From the NCBI GenBank assembly GCA_045612165.1, contig JAZKYM010000094.1, positions 1 through 14,963 of the forward strand: a stretch of DNA of 14,963 nucleotides, written 5' to 3'. The stretch is from Vescimonas sp. (GTDB taxonomy: Bacteria > Bacillota > Clostridia > Oscillospirales > Oscillospiraceae). The notes under the pieces are model-generated. The model saw only the letters and a list, made by a program, of their open reading frames with translations. It ran no database searches and was not told where the DNA came from. The position numbers and the translations under genes are program-made. Numbering within the stretch: the first letter of the stretch is position 1; the number at the start of each line of letters is the position of its first letter. Positions 21 through 13,828 of this stretch are shown piece by piece.

Positions 21-533
21 TTATTGTTTTGACTTCTTTTGTTGAACGAGGGGGATCAGGTTAATTGCGCCCCAGAGGACAATGCCATAGACGATGATGC
101 CGAGGGAACGATTGGCTACATTTCGCTTGTGCATGAAATGAAGCATATCATCAAGAGACAACAAAGTTTCGTTTTCAGTCGCAAAACTGACAATTTCATT
201 ACTACCAGGGTAAAGCAGAAGCGAGATATTTGCGCGTTCGGGCAATGCAGCTACTCCGGAGCGCAGTTTGTCATGAGCTGTCCATTTGATGTAGTATTGC
301 TTGCTGTTTGTGCAGTTGATAAAAATGTATCGAAGACTGCTTCCGTGCCAATCCTCTTCGTAAGAGAGAAACTCGGTTTCGATAAAAGTGCAATCCTCTT
401 TTGCAATTTTCGCGTTCGGGTATGGTTTGTGAAGGATAAGAAAAGTACCCAAAACAGCGAAGAGGAGCAGAGCAGTAAGTTGCGATGCGGTGGACGGGGG
501 ATTTTTCTTCACTCCGTGGAGCTTAATAGCCAT
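21..533 (-). CDS. Hypothetical membrane protein (170 aa) with hydrophobic segments near both termini; lower G+C than neighbouring housekeeping genes
   Basis: The ORF is complete: ATG at 533, stop at 21-23. On the minus strand GGAGG lies 8 nt upstream of the ATG (aattGGAGGtgtctgtATG). The N-terminus (LTALLLFAVLGTFLIL) and C-terminus (LGIIVYGIVLWGAINLIPLV) are predicted TM helices. The antisense + ORF 39-593 has no comparable signals. Confidence 0.5.
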   Translation of the reverse strand: MAIKLHGVKKNPPSTASQLTALLLFAVLGTFLILHKPYPNAKIAKEDCTFIETEFLSYEEDWHGSSLRYIFINCTNSKQYYIKWTAHDKLRSGVAALPERANISLLLYPGSNEIVSFATENETLLSLDDMLHFMHKRNVANRSLGIIVYGIVLWGAINLIPLVQQKKSKQ

Positions 534-556
534 ACAGACACCTCCAATTTGAGCAA

Positions 557-586
557 ATTATATCACAAAATAGGTGTGTTTGTAAA
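557..586 (-). promoter_or_regulatory. Sigma70-like promoter for the 21-533 gene (-35 TTACAA, 17-bp spacer, extended -10 TGaTATAAT)
   Basis: The minus strand reads ...tTTACAAacacacctattttgTGaTATAATttgctcaaattGGAGGtgtctgtATG. The -10 lies at 557-562, TG at 563-565 and the -35 at 580-586. Confidence 0.45.
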
Positions 587-669
587 TAAGTGACGCAGCT
601 ACACTGTGATAGGCGAAGTCTGCATCACACAGGTCTTGTGCATCGCGTTTCGACAGGAAAGCAGCATTC

Positions 670-708
670 AAAAAGGCTCTTTTGTCTACTGGACAAAAGA
701 GCCTTTTT
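670..708 (-). terminator. Perfect bidirectional Rho-independent terminator directly downstream of tRNA-Gly
   Basis: A 12-bp perfect stem ggctcttttgtc (675-686) / gacaaaagagcc (692-703) with loop tactg is flanked by AAAAA (670-674) and TTTTT (704-708). It works as hairpin plus U-tract on either strand. Confidence 0.75.
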
Positions 709-710
709 CG

Positions 711-784
711 TGGAGCGGGGTACGGGAATCGAACCCGCCTATGCAGCTTGGGAAGCTGCCGTTCTACCGATGAACTAACCCCGC
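711..784 (-). tRNA. tRNA-Gly (anticodon CCC), 74 nt including encoded CCA
   Basis: The reverse complement reads GCGGGGT-TA-GTTCatcggtaGAAC-G-GCAGC-TTCCCAA-GCTGC-ATAG-GCGGGTTCGATTCCCGT-ACCCCGC-T-CCA. A clean cloverleaf results: 7-bp acceptor, D arm, anticodon loop TTCCCAA and T arm GGTTCGATTCC. Confidence 0.85.
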
Positions 785-802
785 AGATGCAGTTACTGTG
801 CC

Positions 803-831
803 ATTATAACAGCCGCGCTGTGGATTTGCAA
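803..831 (-). promoter_or_regulatory. Sigma70-like promoter for tRNA-Gly (-35 TTGCAA, 17-bp spacer, -10 TATAAT)
   Basis: The minus strand reads cgccTTGCAAatccacagcgcggctgtTATAATggcacagtaactgcatct-GCGGGG(tRNA). The -10 hexamer ends about 18 nt before the mature 5' end of the tRNA. Confidence 0.5.
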
Positions 832-907
832 GGCGAAAAATGTCGCCCCCGGCATGAATTGCCGCGTCGGCGCATAAGGTGAGAAAAATGCTGTGGAGGG
901 AACGCGG

Positions 908-2041
908 ATGAAGCGATGTATTGTTCTTGCGCTGCTCTTTTTGTGCCTGTGGCCGGCTTCGGCATGGGCGGTAGAGCTGGAGATCGAGGCGCCGGCGGCG
1001 CTTTTGATGGAAAAGACCACGGGGCAGATTCTGTACGCCCAAAACGAACATCAGAAGCTGGAGCCTGCCAGCGTCACCAAGGTGATGACGCTGCTTTTGA
1101 CCATGGAGGCCATTGAAAAAGGTGCTATCGGCTATGATGACGTGGTGACAGTCAGCGCCTACGCCGCCTCCATGGGCGGCAGCAACGTGTATCTGGCTGA
1201 GGGAGAGAAAATCACGGTGGAGGAGCTGCTGAAAGCGGTCTGTGTGGCGTCGGGCAACGATGCGGCGGTGGCGCTGGCTGAGCATGTGTCCGGTGTAACG
1301 GAGTTGTTTGTGGCAGAGATGAACAACCGCGCCAAAGAGCTGGGCATGAGGGACACCCACTTTGTCAACTGCCACGGCCTGCCGGCAGAGGGGCATGTAA
1401 CCAGTGCGGCGGACATCGCCATCATGAGCCGTGAACTGATTTTGAGCCATCCGGATTTGCGGCGCTTTACCACCATCTGGATGGACTCGCTGCGAGGGGG
1501 CGCCTTTGAGCTGGCCAACACCAACAAGCTGATCCGTTTTTATGAAGGGGCGACAGGACTGAAGACCGGCTCCACCAGCTCTGCCGGCTACTGCATCAGC
1601 GCCACCGCCGAGCGCGACGGCATGGAACTGATCGCTGTGGTGCTCAAGGGCGGCACATCGCAGCAGCGTTTCGAGGATGCCAAAACTATGCTCAACTACG
1701 GGTTTTCCACCTATGCGCTGCATGCGGTGGAACTTGCCGAGCCGCTGATGCCGCTGCCGGTGCACTTGGGTATGCAGGAGACGGTGGCGTTGATGCTGCC
1801 TGAGGCGGGACGGCAGGTGCTGGTAAAAAAGGCGCAGGTATCCGGCCTGACGCAGGAAGTGACGCTGCCGGAAGAGGTGGAGGCGCCGGTGGCACAGAGG
1901 CAGCAGCTGGGTACGCTGACCGTTCGTGATGGCGAGACAGTGGTGCTGGAGGTACCCGTTCAGGCAGCGGAAGCGGTGGAAAAGCTGACGTGGTGGGAGA
2001 TGTACCGCCGGATGCTGGGGGAGTTATGTTTTCGGGCGTAA
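908..2041 (+). CDS. Serine-type D-Ala-D-Ala carboxypeptidase (PBP5/6, peptidase S11 family) with N-terminal signal peptide
   Basis: The product carries the penicillin-binding motifs SVTK (SxxK), SGN (SxN) and KTGST (KTG). It has a signal peptide MKRCIVLALLFLCLWPASAWA and a C-terminal PBP5-type domain. GGAGGG precedes the ATG at 908; the ATG at 893 in the track lies upstream of the SD and is less likely. Confidence 0.85.
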   Translation: MKRCIVLALLFLCLWPASAWAVELEIEAPAALLMEKTTGQILYAQNEHQKLEPASVTKVMTLLLTMEAIEKGAIGYDDVVTVSAYAASMGGSNVYLAEGEKITVEELLKAVCVASGNDAAVALAEHVSGVTELFVAEMNNRAKELGMRDTHFVNCHGLPAEGHVTSAADIAIMSRELILSHPDLRRFTTIWMDSLRGGAFELANTNKLIRFYEGATGLKTGSTSSAGYCISATAERDGMELIAVVLKGGTSQQRFEDAKTMLNYGFSTYALHAVELAEPLMPLPVHLGMQETVALMLPEAGRQVLVKKAQVSGLTQEVTLPEEVEAPVAQRQQLGTLTVRDGETVVLEVPVQAAEAVEKLTWWEMYRRMLGELCFRA

Positions 2042-2071
2042 AAAGAGACGGCGTGAGCCGTCTCTTTTTTC
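2041..2071 (+). terminator. Rho-independent terminator of the carboxypeptidase gene
   Basis: Stem agagacggc / gccgtctct with a GTGA loop, followed by TTTTT(T) at 2066-2070, immediately after the stop codon. Confidence 0.8.
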
Positions 2072-2100
2072 TTGTAATTTGCGCTGCAGCGTTGTAAAAT
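2072..2100 (+). promoter_or_regulatory. Sigma70-like promoter for pgi (-35 TTGTAA, 17-bp spacer, -10 TAAAAT)
   Basis: cTTGTAAtttgcgctgcagcgttgTAAAATaat, then an AT-rich leader and AGGAGG 9 nt upstream of the ATG at 2148. Confidence 0.5.
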
Positions 2101-2147
2101 AATAAAATAAGGAAATATCACCAACTTTCATACAGGAGGAAATATAT

Positions 2148-3485
2148 ATGATTCAGGTCAATCTGACCAACATTCAGTCTTTTGTGACCCCTAATTATGA
2201 GGCAGAACTGGCTGAGCGTGTTCGTGACGCCCACGACAAGCTGCAGCTGGGCACCGGCGCCGGCAGTGACTTTATCGGCTGGGTGCGGCTGCCTGCCGAC
2301 TACGATAAAGAAGAATTTGCCCGTATCAAGGCTGCTGCCGAGAAGATCAAGAGCGACAGTAAGGCGTTGGTGGTGGTAGGCATCGGCGGCTCCTATCTGG
2401 GTGCCCGTGGTGTTATCGAGTGCCTGTGCTCTGCCAACTACAACCTGAAGAAGAAGGATACGCCCAACATCTACTTTGCCGGTAACGGTCTCTCTTCCGA
2501 TCAGCTGAGCGAAGTGGTGGAGCTGCTGGGTGACGACGACTTTTCCGTTAATGTCATCTCCAAGTCCGGCACTACCACCGAGCCTGCCGTGGCTTTCCGC
2601 TTTTTCCGCAAGCTGCTGGAGGACAAGTACGGCGAGGAAGAAGCTGCTCGCCGCATCTATGCCACCACTGACCGCGCTCGCGGCGCGCTGAAGACGCTGG
2701 CAGATGAGGCCGGCTATGAATCCTTCGTGGTGCCGGATGATGTGGGTGGCCGTTACAGTGTGCTGACCGCCGTGGGTCTGCTGCCCATCGCCGTGGCCGG
2801 TGTGGACATTGACGCGCTGATGGCCGGTGCTGCCGATATGATGGAAAGCTGTGCCAAGCCCGAACTGGAGACCAATCCTGCATGGCAGTACGGTGCTGCC
2901 CGTTACGAGCTGTACCGCACCGGCAAGAAGATCGAGATTCTGGCTGCCTATGAGCCTAATTTCCGATTCATGTGCGAGTGGTGGAAGCAGCTCTACGGTG
3001 AGAGCGAGGGAAAAGAGAACAAGGGTCTGTTCCCTGCCAGCGTGGAATTTACCGCAGACCTGCACTCCATGGGTCAGTACATTCAGGAGGGTGAGCGCCA
3101 CATCTTTGAGACGGTGGTGCGTCTGGGCAAATCCGCCACGACGAATTGCGTGCCCTTTGACAAGGTCAATGGCGATGGCCTGAACTTCCTGGCCGGTAAG
3201 GATATGGACTTCATCCGCCAGCAGGCCATGGACGGTACGCTGCTGGCCCATGTGGAGGGCGGTGTGCCCAACATCATCGTGGGTCTGGAAAAGCTGGATG
3301 CGTATTCTCTGGGCGAATTGATTTATTTCTTTGAGTATGCCTGCGGCATCAGCGGTTATCTGCTGGATGTGAATCCCTTTGATCAGCCCGGTGTGGAGGC
3401 CTATAAGAAGAACATGTTCGCGCTGTTGGGCAAGCCCGGCTATGAGGAGCTGCGCCGGGAACTGTTGGCCAAGCTGGATCAGTAA
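2148..3485 (+). CDS. pgi: Glucose-6-phosphate isomerase (445-aa Firmicutes-type PGI)
   Basis: The length, the overall sequence and the conserved [14 protein letters not shown] sis-domain motif are typical of bacillus/clostridial Pgi. A strong SD (acAGGAGGaaatatatATG) precedes the start. Confidence 0.9.
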
Positions 3486-3609
3486 CGATTGTTCGTTTCT
3501 ACAAAAAAAGAGTGTATAATTTCTCATTGCTATTTTCGCGACAATGTGGTATCGTATAGTTAAATATAGGAACCACTGGTTGCTGTATATTCTGAAGGAG
3601 TGATTTCTT

Positions 3610-4020
3610 ATGGTTAGATTGATTATGGGTGCCGCCGGTGCCGGCAAGACCAAGCAGCTGATCGACCTGATCCACGCCAGCGTGGAAGCCGAAAAGGGCA
3701 GTGTTGTATGCATTGAGCCCGGCGCAGATATGACTTATGACGTGAGCCACAGCGTGCGTCTGGTCAACGCCGGCGAGTATGATCTGGATTCTTTTGAGTG
3801 CCTGCGCGGCTTTGTCAGCGGTCTGTATGCAGGCAATTACGATATCTCTCATGTCTACGTGGACAATCTGTGCAAGATTACCCGTAACAACGACGTGCGT
3901 GAGACGGAGAAGTTCCTCAACTGGCTGGAGCGCTTCAGCGAGAAGAACATGGTGAAGTTCACCGTGACCCTCAGCGCTGATGTGGGTACCGCTACGGATG
4001 GTATGCGTCAGTTCATGTAA
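3610..4020 (+). CDS. Small P-loop (Walker-A-like GAAGAGKT) hypothetical protein, 136 aa
   Basis: AAGGAG lies 9 nt upstream of ATG 3610. The product starts MVRLIMGAAGAGKTKQLIDL... G+C resembles the backbone and a clean terminator follows. I cannot assign a family beyond the P-loop-like motif. Confidence 0.6.
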   Translation: MVRLIMGAAGAGKTKQLIDLIHASVEAEKGSVVCIEPGADMTYDVSHSVRLVNAGEYDLDSFECLRGFVSGLYAGNYDISHVYVDNLCKITRNNDVRETEKFLNWLERFSEKNMVKFTVTLSADVGTATDGMRQFM

Positions 4021-4028
4021 GTCCATAG

Positions 4029-4060
4029 AAGAGCCGCGATCACGGTCGCGGCTCTTTTTC
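4029..4060 (+). terminator. Rho-independent terminator
   Basis: A 10-bp perfect stem agagccgcga (4030-4039) / tcgcggctct (4046-4055) is followed by TTTT at 4056-4059. Confidence 0.75.
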
Positions 4061-4073
4061 GCTCATAAGCCTC

Positions 4074-4102
4074 TTGTGAAACAGGTGGCGGCGTGATACA
4101 AT
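4074..4102 (+). promoter_or_regulatory. Sigma70-like promoter upstream of the tRNA-Leu locus (-35 TTGTGA, 17-bp spacer, -10 TACAAT)
   Basis: cTTGTGAaacaggtggcggcgtgaTACAATaagcaagtgtctat-GCGGGTA... The -10 lies about 15 nt upstream of the tRNA-like 5' end at 4117. Confidence 0.5.
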
Positions 4103-4116
4103 AAGCAAGTGTCTAT

Positions 4117-4160
4117 GCGGGTATGGCGGAATTGGCAGACGCGCAGGATTTAGGTGCTGT
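4117..4160 (+). pseudogene. Truncated/degenerate tRNA-Leu-like 5' half (acceptor 5' strand, D arm, anticodon region TAG) lacking T arm and acceptor 3' strand
   Basis: GCGGGTA-TG-GCG-gaattggcaga-CGC-G-CAGGA-TTTAGG-TGCTG matches the tRNA-Leu 5' half up to the anticodon stem, which has one mismatch and a 6-nt loop. The downstream sequence ggtgaaggttttccggttccccttgatttcccg has no GGTTCGA-type T arm and no strand complementary to GCGGGTA. Confidence 0.4.
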
Positions 4161-4220
4161 CACCTTGGTGAAGGTTTTCCGGTTCCCCTTGATTTCCCGT
4201 AAAGGATCTTATAAAATAAA

Positions 4221-4250
4221 TAACAGCCGGAAATGCTCTCCGGCTGTTCA
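4221..4250 (-). other. GC-rich hairpin (aacagccgg/ccggctgtt) with a T-tract on the minus strand; terminator-like in minus orientation
   Basis: The stem aacagccgg (4221-4229) / ccggctgtt (4240-4248) has loop aaatgctctc. It is preceded on the plus strand by ataaaataaataa, which reads as a U-tract on the minus strand, and lies between the tRNA fragment and the intact tRNA-Leu. Confidence 0.3.
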
Positions 4251-4253
4251 TAT

Positions 4254-4336
4254 GCGGATGTGGCGAAACTGGTATACGCGATAGATTTAGGCTCTATTGG
4301 GCGACCGTGCAGGTTCGAGTCCTGTCATCCGCACCA
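4254..4336 (+). tRNA. tRNA-Leu (anticodon TAG), 83 nt, type-II long variable arm, encoded CCA
   Basis: GCGGATG-TG-GCG-aaactggtata-CGC-G-ATAGA-TTTAGGC-TCTAT-tgggcgaccgtgc-AGGTTCGAGTCCTG-TCATCCGC-A-CCA. The acceptor, anticodon and T stems all pair. Confidence 0.85.
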
Positions 4337-4337
4337 C

Positions 4338-4378
4338 AAAAACACCGGGTTTCTTTTTGGGAATCCGGTGTTTTTCTA
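4338..4378 (+). terminator. Rho-independent terminator after tRNA-Leu
   Basis: Stem aaaacaccgg (4339-4348) / ccggtgtttt (4365-4374) followed by a T-rich tttttct. Confidence 0.65.
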
Positions 4379-4464
4379 ACTTTTTATAAGATTTGTGAGC
4401 TTAGGAAACACTCTGTGCGCGAATTCATAAGTTTCGTTATGTTTTGTAATGTCACAAAATTATA

Positions 4465-4493
4465 TTGACACATAGCAAAACTTGTGATATGTT
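4465..4493 (+). promoter_or_regulatory. Strong sigma70-like promoter of the cassette operon (-35 TTGACA, 17-bp spacer, extended -10 TGaTATGTT)
   Basis: tataTTGACAcatagcaaaacttgTGaTATGTTaaatgcagatcatAGGAGGtgctgttATG. A perfect -35 and a TGn-extended -10 sit 27 nt upstream of the start of gene A. The inverted repeat TTTTGT-N6-ACAAAA at 4442-4459 lies just upstream. Confidence 0.55.
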
Positions 4494-4519
4494 AAATGCA
4501 GATCATAGGAGGTGCTGTT

Positions 4520-5272
4520 ATGGATTACGATAAAATTATCATTGACCTATTGAATCGCATTGTTACATTGGAAGAACGAGTGGCCAAGCTGGAAAGTGGA
4601 AGCACGAATGTGCCTCAGGAGAGCCCTGAGTTGCCTGCTGGAAGTAAAAAATATCGTTTCCTCTCTGATTATCTCTACGAAAGCAACCAAGCACGGGTCA
4701 AGCTGACCTATGTCGAAATTGAGAACATCCTGAAATTTAAGCTTCCGGATTCCGCGGCCACCCATCGTGCGTTTTGGGCAAACACAACCAGCCACTCCAT
4801 TGCGCTTAGTTGGCTCAGCGTAAATTACTCTGTTGTGGAAGTTAATCTTGAAAATAAGTACATTGTTTTTGAGAAAATGAGGGATTTTGATACGATGAAA
4901 ACGGGAAGAAAAACAGCTACAACCGAAGAAAAGTATCTGAGCGTTTGCAAAAATTATGACATGATGGCTCTTTATCAGAAGCTGAGAGCGGCATTGTTCG
5001 ATGCGTTTGAAGGTGCTGGTACTGGCGCAACTGCTGACTATATTAGTTGGAATGTAAATGGCAAACGGCAGTTTGCTAACTTCTATATTCAGAAAAAGAA
5101 GATCCGCATTTTGACACTCACTCCGAGAAACAGCCACAGCGTGGGAGAGACTGTGCCGGACACACATCTGTGGACGTTAAACTATCAAACAGATATTTCT
5201 ACGGATGCGGATATTGAAAAAGTAAAAGACATTCTGCTTGATTCTTACTCTCAAATTAAACTGTCTATTTAA
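4520..5272 (+). CDS. Hypothetical protein (250 aa) with N-terminal coiled-coil segment; no recognisable catalytic motif
   Basis: AGGAGG lies 7 nt upstream of ATG 4520; the 4496 start in the track would contain the SD inside the ORF. The product starts MDYDKIIIDLLNRIVTLEERVAKLESG..., with a conserved-looking block LPDSAATHRAFWANTTSHSIALSWL. This is the first gene of the low-G+C operon. Confidence 0.6.
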   Translation: MDYDKIIIDLLNRIVTLEERVAKLESGSTNVPQESPELPAGSKKYRFLSDYLYESNQARVKLTYVEIENILKFKLPDSAATHRAFWANTTSHSIALSWLSVNYSVVEVNLENKYIVFEKMRDFDTMKTGRKTATTEEKYLSVCKNYDMMALYQKLRAALFDAFEGAGTGATADYISWNVNGKRQFANFYIQKKKIRILTLTPRNSHSVGETVPDTHLWTLNYQTDISTDADIEKVKDILLDSYSQIKLSI

Positions 5273-5302
5273 GGTATTCATTTAGGGCTCGAGGTGCTCG
5301 CT

Positions 5303-5848
5303 ATGGCAAGAAAACGCATTACAAACAGACCCGGGTTGTTTGGCACCGTTTACCACTATGACGAGAATGGAAATCCCGTCGGAAAGAGTCGCCCTGGTTT
5401 GATTGAGGGAACCAGAGTGTATACCGACCAAGACGGTCGATACGCTGGAAAAAGCCGCCCGGGTTTTCTTGCAAAGGAAGTATTTGCGGATGCAGATCAC
5501 AATTATATTTCCTCCTATGAAGGCCTCTGCGGTGATGTTCACTTTCAAAATGGTGTACCTATAGGCCATACAAGACCGGGGTTCTTCGATTCGATATATA
5601 CCACTTTAGAAACAGAGGATGACCTTCCCGAAGAAGAGTATTGCGAGGAAGACTACTTTGAAGAAGAGTGGACAGAAGATCAAGAGAATTGTACTGGCAT
5701 CGCAGATGAAGCTGAATCCACAAATTGTGAGGAGCACCTTCCCCAAATTTCTCAGCATCCCGTGGTAAAGAATCTTCAACTGTTCGTACTATGCCTTGTG
5801 ATCTGTACGGTCATTGCCTGCGTTTATGCGATTATTCATTTGGATTAA
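5303..5848 (+). CDS. Small tail-anchored membrane protein (181 aa) with four YD-like repeats, an acidic linker and a C-terminal TM helix
   Basis: GAGG lies 8 nt upstream of ATG 5303; the track start at 5294 is a GTG upstream of the SD. Four tandem about 22-aa repeats occur: NRPGLFGTVYHYDENGNPVG, KSRPGLIEGTRVYTDQDGRYAG, KSRPGFLAKEVF...GVPIG and HTRPGFFDSIYT. Then follow an acidic stretch EEEYCEEDYFEEEWTEDQE and a C-terminal hydrophobic helix LFVLCLVICTVIACVYAII. Confidence 0.55.
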   Translation: MARKRITNRPGLFGTVYHYDENGNPVGKSRPGLIEGTRVYTDQDGRYAGKSRPGFLAKEVFADADHNYISSYEGLCGDVHFQNGVPIGHTRPGFFDSIYTTLETEDDLPEEEYCEEDYFEEEWTEDQENCTGIADEAESTNCEEHLPQISQHPVVKNLQLFVLCLVICTVIACVYAIIHLD

Positions 5849-5873
5849 TTTGAGATAGCAACTGTTCTTTTGC

Positions 5874-5897
5874 TATCATTCTATCGAACAAAAAGTT
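5874..5897 (+). other. Intra-operon hairpin (gatagcaa/ttgctatc) without a U-tract, between genes B and C
   Basis: An 8-bp perfect stem (5874-5881 / 5890-5897) with loop ctgttctt, followed by attctatcg rather than a T run. Confidence 0.3.
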
Positions 5898-5980
5898 TGC
5901 ATGTAGTTGGTTATATAAAAAGAACAGGTAGGAAGAAGAAATGTTGATTTTATTTAAATCAAGTTAGAAGGTGCTAATGT

Positions 5981-7147
5981 ATGAATAAATCTCAAAAGAT
6001 CGCACTGCTCAGAACACTAAGCAGTAACCGGGTATTGCGTACAGAATTATTTTATGACATTCTTGAAAAATGCGGAGATTTAAAGCTAAATTACACTGAT
6101 TATTCCTCCACACATCCCATTGATTGCGAAAAAGAAATGCTGCGGCTGCCTACCGCAGATTACGATATGTGTTGTGCGTTAGTCACTATGCTTCTTCGGG
6201 AGGATCATTTTTCTAACGGCAGTTTTGAGGAGCGCCAGCGTGCTGGTCAAGTAAAACCCATCATAGATAGAATGATTTTACTGTTAGAATATGAGAATAA
6301 CCCAGGAGGTCAAACTATGAAGAAAATCCTTCTCGAGGATTTGCTACATATCCCTGCAGAAATGGCAAGTGATGTAAAGGTCAAGTTCAACCAGCACGAT
6401 GGTGACAATGATCCTATGGAGCTGTATTTGCGTGAGCCGGAGATCGTGAATACACAATGGCTGTTTTGGCGCAACAAGCAGCGATATTTCTCCATTGGGC
6501 AAATTGCAATCTGCCTTTTGAAGCTTTCTAATGACACTTGGCTATTGACCACCATCAAGCGTGTTACCAAAGAATTGGGCGTGCTGGATGGCATCAATTA
6601 CGAAGGTGAAGAACTCGAAGAATACCGCCAGTATTACGGCCGCGTAATCATCAAGTACCACAAAACAGCACAAACCCAAGGTATGTACTACCCCACCGTG
6701 TGCAATGATTTGGAAGTGTTACAGCTGCTTCCTACCACATTTGATGGAGATGAATTTCCAGGCTATGATAATGTCAGATTGTCCTACATGCAACTAGCCT
6801 CCATTTTGGAGCGGAGAAAGCAAAGCTGGGTTGCTGCGCTTGAGAACCAAAAAGCAGTGTATTTAATTACTGATACATGCAATGGAAAATTGTATGTAGG
6901 GTCTGCTACCAGCGAGAAGGGTATGCTCTTGCAACGATGGAGCAACTATGTAGATAACGGACACGGCGGAAACAAAGAACTGCTCGCATTGGTGAAAGAA
7001 AAAGGGTTCGACTATGTGAAACAGTATTTTCAATACTCAATTTTGGAAAACTACAACGCAAAAATTGATGACCATGTTGTCCTGAAGCGAGAGTCCTGGT
7101 GGAAGGATGCCTTGCAAAGCAGGCGTTTTGGATATAATAGCAATTAA
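5981..7147 (+). CDS. Two-domain protein (388 aa): unknown N-terminal region plus C-terminal GIY-YIG nuclease domain
   Basis: The C-terminal about 100 aa, AVYLITDTCNGKLYVGSATSEKGMLLQRWSNYVDNGHGG...ESWWKDALQSRRFGYNSN, fits the GIY-YIG pattern (VYxI...GKxYVGSA...R...H/N...E...N). The SD aAGAAGGtg lies upstream of ATG 5981. An in-frame internal AGGAGG+7nt+ATG occurs at 6304-6319. Confidence 0.65.
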   Translation: MNKSQKIALLRTLSSNRVLRTELFYDILEKCGDLKLNYTDYSSTHPIDCEKEMLRLPTADYDMCCALVTMLLREDHFSNGSFEERQRAGQVKPIIDRMILLLEYENNPGGQTMKKILLEDLLHIPAEMASDVKVKFNQHDGDNDPMELYLREPEIVNTQWLFWRNKQRYFSIGQIAICLLKLSNDTWLLTTIKRVTKELGVLDGINYEGEELEEYRQYYGRVIIKYHKTAQTQGMYYPTVCNDLEVLQLLPTTFDGDEFPGYDNVRLSYMQLASILERRKQSWVAALENQKAVYLITDTCNGKLYVGSATSEKGMLLQRWSNYVDNGHGGNKELLALVKEKGFDYVKQYFQYSILENYNAKIDDHVVLKRESWWKDALQSRRFGYNSN

Positions 7148-7219
7148 ATGTTGCTGCATGTAAAATGACATCACAAGATAAGCGAAGATAACGAGTATCG
7201 TACGGAAGGAGTGTGAAAT

Positions 7220-8479
7220 ATGTCCTCATACAATGAACTTATTAAAAACTTTGAGAAGATCAGAGCCTACATGCGAGAGTTCTATGTCTACGGGTTCAAA
7301 AGCCGTGACGACTACCAGAAGAAGAGCGCCCGTTCCTATGATGACGAGCGGCGTCGCCTGGAAAGCTGGCTTGGGGATCACATGAGCTTCGTGCGCACTC
7401 CTGAAGGCAAAAATGTTTTCATCTCCATCGATAGTCGCACCATCCGGCATAACCCACTGTACAATGCCTGGAAAGCGAAGAGTTTTACCGATGGCGACAT
7501 TACTCTGCATTTCATTCTCTTTGACATTCTCCATGACCCTGGCGTGAAGCGAACCATTGCCGAGCTCATGGAAGAAATGGATACGAAATATCTGTCGGGA
7601 TTTGAAATGCCCATGATGTTCGACGAATCCACTGTTCGAAAAAAGCTCAAGGAATACTGCGAGGCCGGCATCATCACTCAGGAAAAAGAAGGCCGCAAGA
7701 TATATTACCGAAGAACAGATAGCGCCGATATTTCCGATTTGAACGATGTCCTGCATTATTTTTCGGAGGTTGCGCCCTGCGGTGTCATCGGCTCTTACAT
7801 ACTGGATAGAGAAGATACGGACACCGATGCGTTTACATTCAAGCATCATTACATAACCGGCGCCATTGATAGCGGTGTTCTTGCCTCGCTGTTCACGGCC
7901 ATGCGAGAAAAACGGGCTGTCACAGTCACGAATATGAGTCGACGCAAAGACATTCCCAGACGCAATCGTGTTGTTCCGCTTCGTATTTTTATCAGCGCGC
8001 AAAGCGGTCGTCAGCATCTGTTTGTTTACATGCCTGACTTTAATTCGTTTAATTCTTTACGCGTAGATTATCTTTCCAATGTTAAACTGGAAGATCCCAC
8101 GCCCCGCTTTGACGAACTCCGAGCAGAACTCGACCGAATGCAAAGCAAAATGTGGGGTGTCAGCGTAAAGCGAAACAAGTGGGGCAACGAGCATCTTGAG
8201 CATGTAGAGTTCACAATAAAGGTTGAAGATAATGAGGAATATATTGTCAAGCGCCTGGAACGTGAGAAACGCATTGGCACGGTGGAAAAGCTTGACGAGC
8301 ATACCTACCGTTTTTCGGCGGATGTCTATGATACCAGCGAGATGATCCCCTGGATCCGAACCTTTATTTGCCGCATCGATAAGATGAATTTCTCCAATCG
8401 CACCATTGAGAATCAATTCAAGAAGGATCTGGAAGCCATGTATCGGATGTATGGTATCAGACAGGAGGTGGGCGAATGA
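7220..8479 (+). CDS. WYL-domain family protein (419 aa; wHTH - WYL - C-terminal WCX-like domain), PafB/BrxR-like putative regulator
   Basis: GGAAGGAG lies 8 nt upstream of ATG 7220. A central winged-HTH-like segment reads KRTIAELMEEMDTKYLSGFEMPMMFDESTVRKKLKEYCEAGIITQEKEGRKIYYR. A WYL-like core reads RQHLFVYMPDFNSFNSLRVDYLSNVKL. A C-terminal ...MIPWIRTFICRI... block is typical of WCX extensions. Confidence 0.5.
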   Translation: MSSYNELIKNFEKIRAYMREFYVYGFKSRDDYQKKSARSYDDERRRLESWLGDHMSFVRTPEGKNVFISIDSRTIRHNPLYNAWKAKSFTDGDITLHFILFDILHDPGVKRTIAELMEEMDTKYLSGFEMPMMFDESTVRKKLKEYCEAGIITQEKEGRKIYYRRTDSADISDLNDVLHYFSEVAPCGVIGSYILDREDTDTDAFTFKHHYITGAIDSGVLASLFTAMREKRAVTVTNMSRRKDIPRRNRVVPLRIFISAQSGRQHLFVYMPDFNSFNSLRVDYLSNVKLEDPTPRFDELRAELDRMQSKMWGVSVKRNKWGNEHLEHVEFTIKVEDNEEYIVKRLEREKRIGTVEKLDEHTYRFSADVYDTSEMIPWIRTFICRIDKMNFSNRTIENQFKKDLEAMYRMYGIRQEVGE

Positions 8480-9387
8480 TATTCAGTGAGCTTTACTCTG
8501 CCTATTACAATACGGTTGCCGCCATTCTTTCCGCTATCCTCGACGGTGAGCACTCCGAACAGGAATTGCAAAAGATCGTAGCGGATTACGCATTTGGCGA
8601 GAGTGTGCTGACCATTATGCCCTCCCTCAAAAGCGAAAAGTGGCAGCTGGTGCATTCCGATATGACCACCCCATTGGAACACAAGCCCACAATACCGCTG
8701 ACGACCCTTCAAAAGCGGTGGCTCAAGGCAATTTCTCTGGACCCCCGTGTGAAGCTGTTTGGTGTGGATTTTCCCGATCTTGAAGATGTGGAGCCCTTGT
8801 TCACATTTGCGGATTATTACATTTACGATCAATATAATGACGGCGATCCCTTTGAGGATGAGCAGTACATAAGAAATTTTAGAATCATTTTGGATGCTAT
8901 CCGCAAGGGTGCGCAGATCAAATTTGACATGACAAACCGTAAAGGCAATATGATGTTTGTCCGATGCCGTCCTTTGCGCCTGGAATATTCCGAAAAGGAT
9001 GATAAATTCCGAGTGGTTACGGCGGGCTGGCGGGCGGTTTCTACGGTTAACCTTGCCAAAATCAGAAGCTGCGCCTATGATATCGGTTATCGGCGAGTGA
9101 GCGGTCGGGAGAGAACGGTGGTTTACGACACTGTCACCGTTAAGATCCGCGACGAGCGAAACGCCATGGAACGCTTCATGCTTCATTTCGCCCATTTTGA
9201 AAAGCAAGCCGAGAAACTTGATAAGAAGCATTACCTCGTAAAAATCAAATATGCTCACGATGATGAATCGGAAATGGTGATCCGGATCCTTTCCTTTGGC
9301 CCTATGATTGAGGTCATGGAACCGGAGGCTTTCAGAAAATTAGTCATTGAAAAGCTAGAAAAACAGCTAAGCTGCGGACTCAAATAA
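8476..9387 (+). CDS. Second WYL-domain family protein (303 aa), translationally coupled to the upstream WYL gene (ATGA overlap), PafC-like partner
   Basis: The start ATG overlaps the stop of the upstream gene (8476-8479 ATGA). A WYL-like core reads NMMFVRCRPLRLEYSEKDDKFRVVTAGWR. The C-terminal VIRILSFGPMIEVMEPEAFRKLVIEKLEKQ matches the characteristic ...G..veVleP..lr... WCX signature of WYL/PafBC-type proteins. Confidence 0.5.
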   Translation: MIFSELYSAYYNTVAAILSAILDGEHSEQELQKIVADYAFGESVLTIMPSLKSEKWQLVHSDMTTPLEHKPTIPLTTLQKRWLKAISLDPRVKLFGVDFPDLEDVEPLFTFADYYIYDQYNDGDPFEDEQYIRNFRIILDAIRKGAQIKFDMTNRKGNMMFVRCRPLRLEYSEKDDKFRVVTAGWRAVSTVNLAKIRSCAYDIGYRRVSGRERTVVYDTVTVKIRDERNAMERFMLHFAHFEKQAEKLDKKHYLVKIKYAHDDESEMVIRILSFGPMIEVMEPEAFRKLVIEKLEKQLSCGLK

Positions 9388-9408
9388 GAGTTCGCAGCTT
9401 TTTTTCCG
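9369..9408 (+). terminator. Rho-independent terminator closing the cassette operon
   Basis: A 9-bp stem aagctgcgg (9369-9377) / tcgcagctt (9392-9400) with one G-U pair has the stop codon in its loop and is followed by TTTTTTT (9400-9406). Confidence 0.7.
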
Positions 9409-9438
9409 TGAAAAACGGTATGCGGATTGGTAAAATAT

Positions 9439-9459
9439 GCTTGCAAGGTACCTTCAAGC
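9439..9459 (+). promoter_or_regulatory. Near-perfect inverted repeat gcttgcaagg-ta-ccttcaagc just downstream of a TAAAAT -10-like hexamer (9431-9436): candidate operator
   Basis: The reverse complement of gcttgcaagg is ccttgcaagc, and the second arm ccttcaagc differs from it at one position. It lies in the long leader upstream of the SPFH-RtcB genes. Confidence 0.25.
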
Positions 9460-9558
9460 CAGTGTTTGAGTTGATCCTTCACAGCGGTGCACCAGGATGT
9501 TCCAAAGTGTATGCCAGAAGAATCCTTGCTCCTTATGAGCCTGTTCAGCTCGGATTTC

Positions 9559-9584
9559 GCGGGTTCGAATCCCGCCGTGCGCCA
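9559..9584 (+). other. Orphan tRNA 3'-end-like fragment (T arm GCGGG-TTCGAAT-CCCGC plus 3' acceptor strand ...CGTGCGCCA) with no matching 5' half
   Basis: ttcGCGGGTTCGAATCCCGCCGTGCGCCAaaag has the canonical T-loop TTCGAAT and a 5-bp T stem. No complementary acceptor 5' strand, D arm or anticodon arm lies within 120 nt upstream. It is not a copy of the tRNA-Leu or tRNA-Gly 3' ends in this window. Confidence 0.35.
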
Positions 9585-9882
9585 AAAGCGTATCGCCAGT
9601 GGTTTGGATTTGTCCTACGGGACGCAAAAACGGTACACTTAACTGTGTGCGAGAACGTTTTATTCTAAGATTCGTTATCATTCGGCAAAGAGAGAAATGC
9701 CCCCGGTAGATTTCTCGGCGCAATGCAAAGCGAGCCTTGCCTGGAAGCGGATACCGTGTTATCCCAATCGGTGCCAAAAGAGTGCTTTCCGCACCGTGCC
9801 GGAAATACTTAAGCTTTCAGCCGCTGCTTTTGCATGAATGATAGCGAGATCGCATTACTACCTTTCAGGAGGATTACATACT

Positions 9883-10986
9883 ATGAAAAAGATGATTATC
9901 AATGAAAATCAAAAGGGCTTTCTCTTCAAAAACGGCAAGTATATCAAGCTGCTGGATGCCGGCAAATATCATCTGTTTGGCGGCAAGGAGATCGTAATCT
10001 CCAATCTAGACCAGCCCATCGCCTGCAGCAAGTGTGCCCTGGAAACCTTGCTTGCCGATAAGTCTGTGTCCGAGCGTGTGACGGTGGTTGAGGTGGGCGA
10101 CGAGGAACTGGCGCTGCACTATGTGAACGGCAAGTTCTCCTCTGTGCTTCGCCACGGCAAACACGCGTTTTGGTCTGTGGTGGATCAGCATGAATTCAAA
10201 ATCGTAGATATCTCCACACCCGAAGTGGATGCATCTATCCCTGTGTACATCTTCTCCAAGATTCCTCAGATCTACTACACCAAAATCGAAGTTGCAGAGT
10301 ATCAGAAGGGCAGACTCTATTTCGATCAGAAGCTGGTGCGCATTTTGGATGCAGGCACCTATTACTTCTGGAAAACATCCACGAAGGTGGATGTAGGATT
10401 TGTGGACACCCGTTTGACGCAAATGAACATCACCGGTCAGGAGATTTTGACGGCAGATAAGGTATCCTTGCGCATCAACTTCGTCTGCAACTATCGTGTG
10501 ACCGACTACGTCAAGATTCTGACCGAGATCGATGATTTCGCAGAACAAATGCATGTGGCGGCACAGCTGGCTCTCCGGGAATATGTTGGCAAACACAAGC
10601 TGGATGAAATCCTGGAAAACAAGGATCAAATGTCCCAGTTTGTGTTCGCAAAGCTGAAGTCCAAGGAGAAGGATTTGTTCGTGGAAATTACGGATGCCGG
10701 TGTGAAGGATATTATCCTGCCCGGTGAGATCCGGGAAATCATGAACACCGTCTTGGTGGCTGAAAAGCGCGCGCAGGCCAATGTCATCACCCGCCGTGAG
10801 GAGGTAGCCTCCACTCGTTCTCTACTGAATACTGCAAAGCTGATGGACGAGAACCAGACCCTTTACAAGCTGAAGGAGCTGGAGTATGTGGAGCGCATTT
10901 GCGAGAATGTTGGCAACATTTCCTTAAATGGCAATGGCAACATCCTCTCCCAGCTGACAGCAATTCTGAAGGTCAACGACGTCTGA
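9883..10986 (+). CDS. SPFH/band-7 (stomatin/prohibitin/flotillin/HflKC) domain protein, 367 aa
   Basis: AGGAGG lies 10 nt upstream of ATG 9883; the track ORF start at 9838 lies upstream of the SD. The core NITGQEILTADKVSLRINFVCNYRVTDYVKI...LALREYVGKHKLDEIL...AGVKDIILPGEIREIMN...AEKRAQANVITRREE is typical of SPFH domains. No obvious N-terminal TM helix. Confidence 0.75.
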   Translation: MKKMIINENQKGFLFKNGKYIKLLDAGKYHLFGGKEIVISNLDQPIACSKCALETLLADKSVSERVTVVEVGDEELALHYVNGKFSSVLRHGKHAFWSVVDQHEFKIVDISTPEVDASIPVYIFSKIPQIYYTKIEVAEYQKGRLYFDQKLVRILDAGTYYFWKTSTKVDVGFVDTRLTQMNITGQEILTADKVSLRINFVCNYRVTDYVKILTEIDDFAEQMHVAAQLALREYVGKHKLDEILENKDQMSQFVFAKLKSKEKDLFVEITDAGVKDIILPGEIREIMNTVLVAEKRAQANVITRREEVASTRSLLNTAKLMDENQTLYKLKELEYVERICENVGNISLNGNGNILSQLTAILKVNDV

Positions 10987-11062
10987 TCCCGATACGGTCG
11001 GACACGTTGTAGCTGTGCATCATAAATAAAAGCCCGATCGTACCATAGGAAAGGAGAATGAC

Positions 11063-12271
11063 ATGATTGAGATTATAGGAAACTTTAACACCGCCCGTGT
11101 ATTTGCCACCACCCTGGACGATGGCGCGCGAGAGCAGATCAAGACGGTATGTGATACTGAGGCCTTTGCCTCTTCGAAGATCCGGATCATGCCCGATGTT
11201 CACGCAGGAAAGGGTTGCACCATTGGTACCACCATGACCATCACGGATAAGATCGTTCCCGCGATGGTTGGTGTGGATATCGGCTGCGGCATGTACACCG
11301 TATACCTTGGCAACATCGATATCGACTTTGAGAAGGTAGACGAGGCGGCACACTTCATCCCTTGCGGCAGAAATGTTTGGGAGGGCAGACAGGAGCGGTT
11401 CGACCTGACTCAGCTGCGTTGCTACCGGTCCCTCCGGGATACCAAGCGTCTTGAGCGATCCTTAGGCACTCTGGGTGGCGGTAATCACTTCATAGAGATC
11501 GATGCGGACGAGAACGGCGGCAAGTACCTGGTGATTCACTCGGGAAGCCGCAATCTCGGCACCCAGGTGGCCGAATTTTATCAGCAGCTGGCTGTGGATC
11601 TGAATGTAGGCAAGGAGGAGTATTTCAAGCAGCGTGAGGAGATCATCCGCACCTACAAGGAACAAGGCAGACGCGCCGAGATCCAGACAACGCTGAAGGC
11701 GTTGGATAAGGATTTTCAAGCTAAGAATCCTACGCTCCCCCGTGATCTTTGCTTCCTCTATGGTTCCTTTATGGCCGACTACCTCCACGATGTGGATATC
11801 TGCCAGAAGTTTGCGGAGAGAAATCGCGCGAAGATGGCAGAAATTATCCTTGATCGCTGCGGCTGGACTGCCCTGGAGACCTTCCAGACCATTCATAACT
11901 ACATTGATGTGAATGAGATGGTGCTCCGCAAGGGTGCTGTATCTGCCAAGGCAGGCGAGAAACTGCTGGTTCCCATCAATATGCGTGATGGCTCGCTGAT
12001 CTGCATTGCCAAGGGTAACCAGGATTGGCACTGTTCCGCACCTCACGGTGCCGGACGGCTGATGTCCCGTTCTGCTGCCTTCGAGCGGCTGACCATGGCT
12101 GAGTATGAGGCCGAGATGGCAGGTATCTATTCCACCTGCGTTGTCCCCGACACCCTCGACGAGTCCCCTATGGCTTACAAGAGCATGGATGAAATCGTAG
12201 AGAACATCGAGCCTACTGCCGAAATTCTTTGCAGAATAAAGCCCATTTACAATTTTAAGGCTGCAGAATAA
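11063..12271 (+). CDS. rtcB: RtcB-family RNA ligase (3'-phosphate/5'-hydroxyl nucleic-acid ligase), 402 aa
   Basis: AAGGAG lies 6 nt upstream of ATG 11063. RtcB hallmark motifs are present: MPDVHAGKGCTIGT, VGVDIGCGM, GTLGGGNHFIEI and SAPHGAGR. The gene is 76 nt downstream of the SPFH gene on the same strand. Confidence 0.85.
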   Translation: MIEIIGNFNTARVFATTLDDGAREQIKTVCDTEAFASSKIRIMPDVHAGKGCTIGTTMTITDKIVPAMVGVDIGCGMYTVYLGNIDIDFEKVDEAAHFIPCGRNVWEGRQERFDLTQLRCYRSLRDTKRLERSLGTLGGGNHFIEIDADENGGKYLVIHSGSRNLGTQVAEFYQQLAVDLNVGKEEYFKQREEIIRTYKEQGRRAEIQTTLKALDKDFQAKNPTLPRDLCFLYGSFMADYLHDVDICQKFAERNRAKMAEIILDRCGWTALETFQTIHNYIDVNEMVLRKGAVSAKAGEKLLVPINMRDGSLICIAKGNQDWHCSAPHGAGRLMSRSAAFERLTMAEYEAEMAGIYSTCVVPDTLDESPMAYKSMDEIVENIEPTAEILCRIKPIYNFKAAE

Positions 12272-12365
12272 AAAAGATGTCACTTTTTACCGCCTCTATA
12301 CATATACATCATAGAGGTGGTATATCGTGTCACTGTTGATGGAACCCTGCGAAAACAAAGAGATA

Positions 12366-12438
12366 ATATGATATAATCTCTACTAAGAAAGGTCATCATG
12401 TTCGTTATAGTAGGACTCGGTGACCTTTTACTTTTTAG
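12366..12438 (+). promoter_or_regulatory. Compact unit: extended -10 (TGaTATAAT, 12369-12377) embedded in an AGAGAT/ATCTCT inverted repeat, followed about 10 nt later by a hairpin (aaaggtca/tgaccttt, 12388-12428) and T-rich tract; candidate small transcript or regulatory element
   Basis: aaAGAGATaatatGaTATAATCTCTactaagAAAGGTCAtcatgttcgttatagtaggactcggTGACCTTTtactttttag. Only a 5-codon ORF is possible here. Confidence 0.2.
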
Positions 12439-12520
12439 CAGGTCGTGTTTTAAAAATCTCCATAATTTGTAACTTTCTTTCGGCTCTAGAGCTGGGAAAG
12501 TGGGGAAGTTTTCAGCCAGA

Positions 12521-12556
12521 AAATGTGCGGACGATAGGTTGATCGTCCGCACTATT
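12521..12556 (-). terminator. Bidirectional hairpin terminator between convergent rtcB and recombinase genes
   Basis: Stem tgcggacgat / atcgtccgca with loop aggttg, flanked by aaaa on the + upstream side and tattttt on the + downstream side. It lies 24 nt beyond the recombinase stop codon (12578) in minus-strand direction. Confidence 0.6.
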
Positions 12557-12577
12557 TTTGTTGGTTACAAAGGCAAA

Positions 12578-13828
12578 TCACTTATTCGTCTGTATGCGCA
12601 GGAGCAGAAGCTCATCGATTTCTTCCTCCAGGGCTTGCACTTCCTGATGGAGCTGGTGCAGTTTTGCGAGGATTGCTGGGCATTTTCTCTCCCGCAGGCA
12701 TTTGCGCTGACGGAGCTCGGCTTGCTCTGCCAGCAGCTGATCTCGTAGCTTTTCTGCGTACCGCTGCACCCTAGCATCCAGCTCGGATTCCCGGATGCGG
12801 TGAGAGGGACAGACTTCTTTTCCATGGCGCATATAGCTTCTGCACAGATATTCCACCCGGCGGTTGCCGTTCCAACACCGGATCCTGGGTACGAAGGTGC
12901 TGCCGCAATCGCCGCAAGCCAGCAATCCCGCATAGCGGTGACAGGCGGTATTGCCCCGGTAAGGCTTGGCATTGGCTTTCAGCAGTGCTTGCGCCTGCTC
13001 CCATTCCTCCCGGGCAACGATGGCCGGATAGAAATCCGTATGGCGGAATTGCTCAGCTTCCGGCACGGCGGTGACGGTGCGCCCGTGGGTCTCTGTCTGA
13101 TGATTGATCAGCAGGCCGGTGTAGCTCTCGTCGGCTAATACATTTTTGACGCTCTGATAGGTCCAACGGTAGCACTTGCCCTCGGCTTTTCCATGGCGTT
13201 CATCCTGGAGCTGCCGGGGCGTTTTTCGCTCCATGGCATTGAGCCTGCGGGTGATCTCCTTTTGCCCCAGGCCCTCGCAGTAAAGTTCATAAATCAAGCG
13301 CACCGTCAGCGCCGCTTCCGGGTGGAGGCGGATACTGTTGGTGTTTTTATCTTTCCAGTAACCGAAGGGAGGCGTGACCACAATGCCTTTCTTTTGTTTC
13401 TCGCGATAACCATGACGGATCTTGTTGCCGATGTCCTTGGCGTAGTAATCGTTCATCAGTTGGGTGATGCCGATGGCAAGTTCGTCCTCGTCATCCATGG
13501 TGCTCAGCCCTTCGGTAGCAGACAAAACTGCCACGCCTTGATGGCGCAAATAATCTATGAATAGAGAGGTCTGCGTCCGGTGGCGTCCCAGCCGGGACAT
13601 ATCTTTTACGATTACCGCATCGATCTGTCTCTTTTCTGCCGCTGCAGACAGCCTCTCCAAGCCTTTGCGGTCGAAGCGCATGCCGGAAGAGTTGTCATCG
13701 TAAGACTCTCCCACCACCGTATAGCCATGCTCCCGGGCATAGTCCCGGATGATCTGCAGCTGATTCTCCAGGGAGTTCATTTCTACATCATCGTCATTGG
13801 ATAGCCTCCCATACAGCCATACTCTCAT
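12578..13828 (-). CDS. Large serine recombinase (resolvase/invertase N-terminal catalytic domain + recombinase domain + zinc ribbon with short coiled coil), 416 aa
   Basis: The N-terminus MRVWLYGRLSNDD...ENQ has the catalytic Ser at position 10, followed by DAVIVKDMSRLGR. A zinc-ribbon CGDCGSTF...C..HGKEVCPSH is followed by a coiled coil. GGAGG lies 7 nt upstream of the ATG, and the start overlaps the upstream recombinase stop (ATGA). Confidence 0.85.
   Translation of the reverse strand: MRVWLYGRLSNDDDVEMNSLENQLQIIRDYAREHGYTVVGESYDDNSSGMRFDRKGLERLSAAAEKRQIDAVIVKDMSRLGRHRTQTSLFIDYLRHQGVAVLSATEGLSTMDDEDELAIGITQLMNDYYAKDIGNKIRHGYREKQKKGIVVTPPFGYWKDKNTNSIRLHPEAALTVRLIYELYCEGLGQKEITRRLNAMERKTPRQLQDERHGKAEGKCYRWTYQSVKNVLADESYTGLLINHQTETHGRTVTAVPEAEQFRHTDFYPAIVAREEWEQAQALLKANAKPYRGNTACHRYAGLLACGDCGSTFVPRIRCWNGNRRVEYLCRSYMRHGKEVCPSHRIRESELDARVQRYAEKLRDQLLAEQAELRQRKCLRERKCPAILAKLHQLHQEVQALEEEIDELLLLRIQTNK

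Follow-up and report, generated by a model that had tools for sequence, protein, structure and literature searches.

A putative Uzume-type GIY-YIG nuclease gene fused to a DUF6508-like domain keeps the start site of its once-separate core gene and probably makes two proteins

Does a gene that carries a complete ribosome-binding site and start codon within its own reading frame make one protein or two? The question arises at a locus of Vescimonas sp. (Bacillota; Clostridia; Oscillospirales; Oscillospiraceae), in the stretch of 14,963 nucleotides (nt) at positions 1 to 14,963, forward strand, of contig JAZKYM010000094.1 (NCBI GenBank assembly GCA_045612165.1), referred to here as the window. The original prediction, made from the sequence alone, described a GIY-YIG fusion protein of 388 residues in which a consensus Shine-Dalgarno (SD) hexamer, AGGAGG, stands 7 nt ahead of an in-frame ATG and could give a second, 276-residue isoform. 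Analysis of the open reading frames (ORFs) in the window confirmed the 388-residue ORF, and the coordinates and description of the reading frame, motif and shorter product were correct (Table 1). We found that the DNA joins a DUF6508-like domain to a core resembling the anti-phage protein UzuA of the Uzume system. Comparison with its homologues points to the internal ATG as the start of what was once a separate gene, retained after fusion, and not as a start that arose afresh inside a longer one. The gene probably gives rise to two proteins, one long and one short. The idea of a second isoform thus has computational support, as the internal site coincides with the start of stand-alone relatives and has been retained in fused ones.

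Between the AGGAGG and the ATG lies the spacer TCAAACT (6310-6316), and the SD itself, at -11.0 kcal/mol, is stronger than any other SD-like site in the ORF. The SD-like sequence ahead of the long form was read from the sequence and forms a weaker duplex with the anti-SD (-4.6 kcal/mol). Across the window, the pattern AGGAGG-N5-9-ATG was observed five times against an expectation of 0.66, a count reached in none of 200 shuffles. The other four sites all lie at gene starts (2148, 4520, 8476 and, on the reverse strand, 13828), and in this DNA the pattern can therefore be regarded as specific to genuine translation starts. An internal promoter producing a separate short transcript was also considered and rejected, with candidates at 6063 and 6244 showing just 9 of 12 consensus matches, no better than chance. 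Opposite-strand ORFs within the gene (6310-6597 and others) were without support and were disregarded.

The site falls precisely on a domain boundary. In the AlphaFold model, residues 1-106 form a helical domain with a predicted local distance difference test score (pLDDT) of 83-94, the score drops below 50 at residues 107-114, and residues 115-250 form a beta-rich domain with values mostly between 75 and 93; the GIY-YIG domain that follows is modelled less confidently. The SD and ATG lie exactly in the low-scoring linker, and the split between the two putative isoforms thereby separates an accessory module from a complete Uzume-like enzyme. The original prediction had treated the approximately 270 residues ahead of the nuclease as a single unit matching nothing recognisable. 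Neither part of this description held. Residues 37-98 match DUF6508 (Pfam PF20118; E=8e-5, 22.9 bits against a gathering cut-off of 23.6), residues 174-388 match UzuA, and the region resolves into two domains, one helical and DUF6508-like, the other a predicted PUA-like barrel and putative reader of modified bases.

Judged by its profile matches, the closest family of the core is Uzume/UzuA. The PADLOC UzuA profile PDLC03973 (278 positions) aligns through its positions 59-278 with an E-value of 1.6e-49, and this alignment puts the profile start near residue 116. A second UzuA profile, PDLC03974 (310 positions), aligns through positions 128-310 (E=1.9e-47), and phrog_26160 (278 positions) aligns in the same way as PDLC03973. 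Beyond these matches, the window gene shares with Uzume a C-terminal GIY-YIG domain, a single-gene organisation without a conserved partner, and a core length (276 residues) close to that of the 278-position profile. It differs in its additional N-terminal DUF6508-like domain and its internal start, and the first ~58-127 profile positions remain unaligned, which makes the window core a diverged relative.

The homologues indicate where the internal start came from. Among 120 close homologues, about 70 clusters contain fused proteins of 387-399 residues with the same architecture and 70-90% identity, and all 37 homologues of 276 residues begin at the position of Met113 with MKKILL(D/N)DLL. In a census of 122 loci, the core was found alone at 94 and fused at 15; most of the stand-alone core loci start at the Met113 codon or no more than two codons away and have an SD of their own. 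A scan of a genome collection with the single protein gave only four loci, all of them stand-alone cores. Core loci without a DUF6508 gene in the available flanks (up to 3-6 kb, often less) numbered 94 of 112. Where the two parts are neighbours, their order varies: a separate N-domain gene lies upstream of the core at one locus (L004, gap about 100 nt), and the core comes first, with a DUF6508-type gene downstream, at two others (L113 4536-5690, on an IMG/VR contig, gap 22 nt; L037 857-2144, gap ~150 nt). N-terminal DUF6508 fusions themselves occur in at least three versions, namely the window type, a 413-residue type with full-length DUF6508, and that of L018. This classic fusion/fission pattern argues that DUF6508 and the core are functionally linked, and that the internal site is the core gene's own start. 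The stand-alone core genes sit in unrelated contexts, and no neighbour gene was conserved among the homologous loci examined, the neighbours differing at every one, which fits a single-gene system. Separately, we observed apparent split variants, for example P0124, whose N-domain ends in ...EIEGG within the linker.

Public gene calls differ in the start that they assign. Within one 90%-identity cluster, near-identical proteins are called as 276, 388, 393 or 439 residues (P0192 and P0194 versus P0189-P0196), and start annotation in the family is accordingly inconsistent, with gene callers giving 388 or 276 residues for near-identical sequences. The presence of 276-residue members even inside this cluster (P0192, P0194), together with a 5' SD weaker than the internal one, might be taken to mean that only the 276-residue ORF is real, and that the 112 codons before it are a remnant, untranslated or in decay, that shares its frame by chance. 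We find this barely credible. The N-domain retains 65-78% protein identity among homologues with nearly saturated synonymous sites, its fold is predicted with high confidence, and its family has stand-alone members of its own. An SD-like site with an ATG also occupies the same place at the 5' start in eight of nine fused homologues, with energies of -3.5 to -11.5 (the coordinate used for L091 fell off the start codon).

If the site was inherited from a once-separate gene, it could have persisted after fusion either through selection or simply as a relic. In the second case, which is the main rival to our reading, the SD and ATG are left over from the fusion event, only the 388-residue protein matters, and initiation at 6317 is incidental and unselected. 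Selection was tested on the DNA of 10 distinct window-type fused genes. Identity to the window gene at four-fold sites is 0.28-0.47, compared with 0.25 expected at random, and synonymous sites are nearly saturated across the fused family. The linker is also variable in protein sequence, with seven versions among these genes (NNPGGQT, ETGRGNT, EIEGVYA, NCKGSPA, ESGEFLN, AHEETRP and THTEVQP). Nevertheless, an SD-like block (AGGAGG, GGAGGA, AGAGGT, GAAGGAG, GGGGAG, GAGGAG or AAGGAAG) stands 7-9 nt before codon 113 in 9 of the 10 genes, and codon 113 is ATG in seven, with TTG, GTG and ATA once each. The codon at position -4 is GGA in all five cases where it encodes Gly, though only 30% of the Gly codons in these genes are GGA (2 of 22 in L090), AGA in both cases of Arg, and GAA or GAG in the remainder. 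The SD and start are therefore conserved in these fused genes more closely than the protein sequence demands, despite near-saturated synonymous divergence and a changing linker.

Comparison with the rest of the gene gives the same picture. An SD of -5.9 kcal/mol or stronger is present in six of the seven linker sequences against an in-gene background of 9.2% (binomial tail 4e-6), and an NTG codon with such an SD occurs at 8 of 10 junctions as opposed to 12 of 3648 other codon positions (0.3%); as the fused sequences are related, these binomial and count statistics overstate their independence. Apart from L093, the internal SD energies (-5.9 to -11.0) match those of stand-alone core genes (-7.4 +/- 1.6 kcal/mol). 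The internal SD is no weaker than the 5' SD in eight of the nine fused genes where both could be scored, and in 9 of 10 genes the mRNA is less structured around the internal site than on average along the gene. In 5 of 14 fused genes, the junction outranks every other SD-like site in the gene. Furthermore, the 413-residue class, which was fused independently, keeps an SD and start as well (GGAGG-8nt-GTG in L010 and AGAGGG...ATG in L011).

The composition of the linker invites a different explanation, in which the purine-rich Gly-Gly patch serves as a flexible hinge, or as an SD-like pause site that aids folding of the N-domain. The motif does lie exactly in the predicted disordered linker and, in 33 non-redundant fused proteins, Gly is the commonest residue at both 109 and 110. 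Column entropy in these proteins is 1.9-3.3 bits at residues 104-112, lower at 109 and 110 (1.5-1.6), and falls to 0.9 bits at position 113, where 28 proteins have Met, two have Val, and Leu, Ile and Phe occur once each. Of the 33 proteins, 32 have G, E, R or K at residue 109, all of them purine-only codon families. A hinge leaves unexplained the conserved Met113 or NTG codon 7-9 nt downstream, the use of no Gly codon other than GGA, and the replacement of Gly by Glu, Arg or Lys, and for hinge and pause site alike the position is the true start in about 90 stand-alone genes. We therefore consider this explanation improbable.

Several observations weigh against a working internal start in an Uzume-type gene. 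Beyond the relatedness of the fused sequences already mentioned, the site is degraded in 2 of the 10 fused genes, L091 (an ATA codon) and L093 (a weak SD). In L018 78-1178, a diverged third fusion type, the junction reads CAA AGA GAA ACA GTA ATT AAA, with no NTG and a weak SD, so the internal start is dispensable and can decay. The caution in the original prediction that the motif might be a coincidence of Gly-Gly codons proved correct in part: synonymous recoding of the linker matched the strength of the SD in 3-40% of trials, and part of the SD signal thus comes from the linker amino acids. The Val and Leu replacements of Met113 are also expected from conservative protein evolution. We had considered these replacements as evidence of start-codon selection and rejected them, as a single step from ATG can reach these conservative residues only through GTG and TTG, and the pattern does not discriminate. 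The family assignment has its own weaknesses, in that the two UzuA profiles were covered over just 79% and 59% of their lengths, and that Uzume, although a validated single-gene anti-phage system, is listed in reviews as having an unknown mechanism (PMC12926258). Our literature search on the Uzume mechanism gave nothing beyond 'GIY-YIG, probably nucleic-acid degradation'.

These points bear most directly on the fusion-scar explanation. A relic would account for a site that was certainly inherited from the stand-alone gene, that has decayed in L091, L093 and the L018 type, and whose SD strength partly follows from the Gly, Glu and Arg of the linker. It accounts less well for a purine block that persists though synonymous sites are near saturation, for Gly codons at -4 that are uniformly GGA and are replaced by Glu, Arg or Lys and not by Ala or Val, for a Met113 kept within a disordered linker, and for a second fusion class that also keeps its SD and start. 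We consider a relic unlikely, while giving it appreciable weight. On balance, the comparative evidence leans towards a short isoform that is made and matters, and we hold with similarly modest confidence that the fusion kept a working internal start and so yields long and short isoforms.

What would each isoform contribute? The accessory domain that distinguishes them carries the motif RLPTADYDxCCALxTMLLREDHFSNGSF in the window protein. For residues 1-112, clustering at 50% identity gives 191 related clusters, most of them of stand-alone proteins of 100-140 residues, and the strongly conserved motif common to them is RLPxADYxxCxALLTMLLREDHFxNGxF. Although the window domain itself scores just under the DUF6508 gathering cut-off, close relatives pass it (P0145 with 29 bits and L004 with 52.9 bits), and PF20118 is precomputed for most homologues. 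The match covers the C-terminal two thirds of the profile, and the window-type domain is shortened, at about 105 residues compared with 129 profile positions. A fold search with the N-domain returned generic helical bundles only, and our literature search found no paper mentioning DUF6508.

DUF6508 also occurs in other company. Longer relatives are fused to Macro, NADAR, UDG, DUF1643, PD-(D/E)XK (PDDEXK_4) or LEM-3-like GIY-YIG domains (proteins P0260, P0263, P0275, P0283, P0345, P0261 and P0257), partners whose substrates are in every case DNA, DNA bases or ADP-ribose adducts. In ten metagenomic contigs (L098-L107; for example L100 830-2152), a stand-alone 104-residue DUF6508-like gene overlaps the end of a gene for a 196-residue protein by 8 nt and is followed after 30 nt by a gene for a 131-residue dCMP/cytidine deaminase. 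This block adjoins an opposite-strand gene for a protein of more than 2000 residues. The 196-residue protein of L100 gave weak HNH matches only; it was considered as a possible relative of the window protein and set aside when comparison gave no similarity. Most core genes lack the DUF6508 domain, which argues that it is not an antitoxin needed by the nuclease. The most that its sequence context allows is a putative targeting or regulatory role.

Both isoforms would contain the nuclease, and the original assignment of a GIY-YIG domain to the C-terminus was confirmed. On residues 291-386, Pfam GIY-YIG matched with E=5e-4 (20.7 bits, just under the gathering cut-off of 22.6) and TIGR01453 with E=4e-8 (33.6 bits, under the curated cut-off of 56). 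A profile built from 27 homologues and compared with PDB sequences found the catalytic domain of I-TevI (E=1e-4), and I-TevI was also the top Foldseek match (probability 0.99). In the I-TevI alignment, GIY corresponds to VY294, YVG to Y305-V-G307, the catalytic R to R319, E75 to E371 and N90 to N386. Y294, Y305, G307, R319, H328, E371 and N386 are invariant in the 27 homologues.

This resemblance to I-TevI raises an alternative to a defence nuclease, namely a selfish GIY-YIG homing endonuclease belonging to a mobile element. PADLOC 'HEase', TIGR01453 (group I intron endonuclease) and phrog_314 (homing endonuclease) all match the nuclease domain, and the gene is located in an island of low GC content with serine recombinases nearby. 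However, these matches are weak and confined to the catalytic domain, and the UzuA match is much stronger. Homing endonucleases of the I-TevI type have an N-terminal GIY-YIG domain and a C-terminal DNA-binding region, and are intron-encoded or free-standing in phage genomes; the domain order here is the opposite. Relatives of the core were found on 422 plasmid records against three phage records, in every case as a free-standing, intact gene, and intron or intein context was absent from all loci examined. In the 25 records listed, the plasmid-borne relatives carry the annotation 'GIY-YIG nuclease family protein'. A homing endonuclease is, in our view, very improbable.

A possible target is suggested by the middle domain. 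When used as a query without the GIY-YIG domain, it matched CMoRE, and the match must therefore fall on the non-GIY-YIG domain of that protein. According to the CMoRE report (PMC12923530), this domain binds 5-hydroxymethyl-dCTP (5hm-dCTP), and CMoRE, or PD-T4-3, is a GIY-YIG type IV restriction enzyme dependent on 5-hydroxymethylcytosine (5hmC) or its glucosylated form (5ghmC) (PDB 9U75), with a GIYxY motif and an acidic inhibitory loop. The window core looks like an enzyme with a putative reader and a GIY-YIG domain, related in fold to the 5hmC-specific CMoRE, and this suggests modification-dependent restriction. CMoRE combines a GIY-YIG nuclease with a base-reading domain in a single-protein defence system, an arrangement that the window protein would share. 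The two differ in domain order, CMoRE having its GIY-YIG domain N-terminal and its sensor C-terminal, the reverse of the window core. No significant sequence similarity was found between CMoRE and the window protein. The other close working analogues, besides CMoRE, are the EVE/PUA-nuclease type IV enzymes (e.g., the EVE-HNH protein VcaM4I, PDB 6yex), from which the window protein differs in that its nuclease is GIY-YIG and not HNH or PD-(D/E)XK. No methyltransferase was found among the scanned ORFs of the window (3610-13828). Given an intact GIY-YIG domain and no methyltransferase nearby, a type IV-like modification-dependent nuclease is the best-supported mechanism, and the core is probably an enzyme of this kind.

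Taken together, these comparisons lead us to propose the following model. A helical accessory domain of the short DUF6508 type (residues 1-106) is joined through a disordered linker of eight residues to an UzuA-type core (residues 113-388), consisting of a putative PUA-like reader barrel and then a GIY-YIG nuclease. The AGGAGG-7nt-ATG is in this model the original ribosome-binding site and start of the core gene, kept under selection after fusion. A single mRNA would then yield the 388-residue form from the weaker upstream SD and the 276-residue form, identical to the stand-alone core enzyme, from the stronger internal one. The PUA-like domain of the core would recognise a modified base in the invading DNA and its GIY-YIG domain would cut, in a type IV-like manner, while the long form would add a targeting or regulatory module. 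The analysis shows the domain architecture, the homology of Met113 to the start of the stand-alone genes, and the retention of SD and start at the level of nucleotides. We infer from these comparisons that the short form is produced, that cleavage may depend on modification, that subunits may oligomerise and that DUF6508 may play such a part; mixed long and short subunits would then set the dose of the DUF6508 module, as in McrBC.

The precedent for such an arrangement is direct. In E. coli, mcrB makes McrB-L and, through an in-frame internal start, McrB-S, a short form that modulates the type IV restriction system McrBC and, like the putative short form here, is without the N-terminal domain (PMC3874153). 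There are also clear differences. McrB is an AAA+ GTPase and McrB-S is without the DNA-binding domain, whereas the predicted short form of the window protein keeps both reader and nuclease and loses only the accessory domain. In addition, the internal start in the window gene can be shown to derive from that of a once-separate ancestral gene.

The genomic setting of the locus provides no more than supporting context for a putative anti-phage role. The gene lies inside a low-GC stretch (window positions 4000-10000; 41-47% GC, compared with 55-60% around pgi) with a tRNA gene at its left edge and two large serine recombinase genes further downstream, which suggests an integrated genomic island at the tRNA gene that carries the nuclease. 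This tRNA-adjacent island, the plasmid-borne relatives and a Zorya-like neighbour at one homologous locus are each consistent with defence. At that locus (L095 1-2592), genes for ZorA-like and OmpA-domain proteins (Zorya-like) lie a few genes upstream of a fused homologue, and at another (L089 13432-14643) a TIR_2-domain protein is encoded about 5.7 kb downstream of one; both contexts hint at defence islands.

The remaining genes of the window are listed in Table 1. The tandem WYL/WCX genes immediately downstream were considered as part of the nuclease system and rejected, as they are not conserved beside homologues, and they are probably a separate module. In the DUF7662 and DUF5655 ORF, an AGGAGG-N7-ATG points to the ATG at 4520, and not to 4496, as the true start. 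In the AT-rich gap following the 184-residue ORF, where the promoter-like site is also found, there is a hairpin (gatagcaa...ttgctatc) at ~5854-5877.

Table 1. Positions of the gene, its signals and domains, and other features of the window
Feature	Position	Strand	Description
Full ORF	5981..7147	+	388 residues; DUF6508-like domain fused to Uzume (UzuA)-like core
Internal Shine-Dalgarno, AGGAGG	6304..6309	+	7 nt before ATG 6317
In-frame ATG (Met113)	6317..6319	+	homologous to start codon of stand-alone core genes
Putative short isoform	6317..7147	+	276 residues; equals complete UzuA-like enzyme
SD-like GAAGGTG for long form	5967..5973	+	7 nt before ATG 5981; read from sequence
Promoter-like site (TTGAGA, 18 nt, TG-TATCAT)	5850..5879	+	AT-rich gap 5' of gene; 10/12 consensus matches plus extended TG; pattern match only
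N-terminal accessory domain, residues 1-106	5981..6298	+	all-helical, short DUF6508 form
Inter-domain linker, residues 107-114	6299..6322	+	predicted disordered; holds internal SD and start
Middle domain, residues 115-280	6323..6820	+	predicted PUA-like beta-barrel, putative modified-base reader
GIY-YIG nuclease domain, residues 291-386	6851..7138	+	profile, PDB-profile and Foldseek matches
tRNA-Gly(ccc)	711-784	-	near left end of window
tRNA-Leu(tag)	4254-4336	+	left edge of low-GC stretch
DUF7662 and DUF5655 ORF	4496-5272	+	AGGAGG-N7-ATG at 4507-4522
184-residue protein	5294-5848	+	no family match; G-K-S-R-P-G-like repeats, acidic middle, hydrophobic C-terminal segment
Tandem WYL/WCX-domain proteins	7220-8479, 8476-9387	+	4-nt overlap; helix-turn-helix-like region in first; PafBC-like arrangement
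SPFH/Band-7 protein	9838-10986
RtcB RNA ligase	11063-12271
Two adjacent large serine recombinase genes	12578-14958	-	further downstream

What is new here is the DUF6508 fusion, an internal start traceable to a once-separate gene, and the retention of that start after fusion. The pattern in which DUF6508 is fused to or neighbours the core and ADP-ribose- or base-processing enzymes marks it as a functional partner. A more speculative extension, which we advance only tentatively and regard as doubtful, is that DUF6508 is a portable sensor or regulator plugged onto enzymes of modified or damaged DNA, and that the dual start fixes the mixture of sensor-bearing and sensor-less subunits in a hetero-oligomeric, modification-dependent Uzume nuclease. 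If true, this would give Uzume a mechanism and would add a new class of accessory module to defence systems. More generally, a gene fusion that still expresses its unfused product would be a clean natural example of its kind, and would offer a simple route by which long/short pairs may arise in defence genes.

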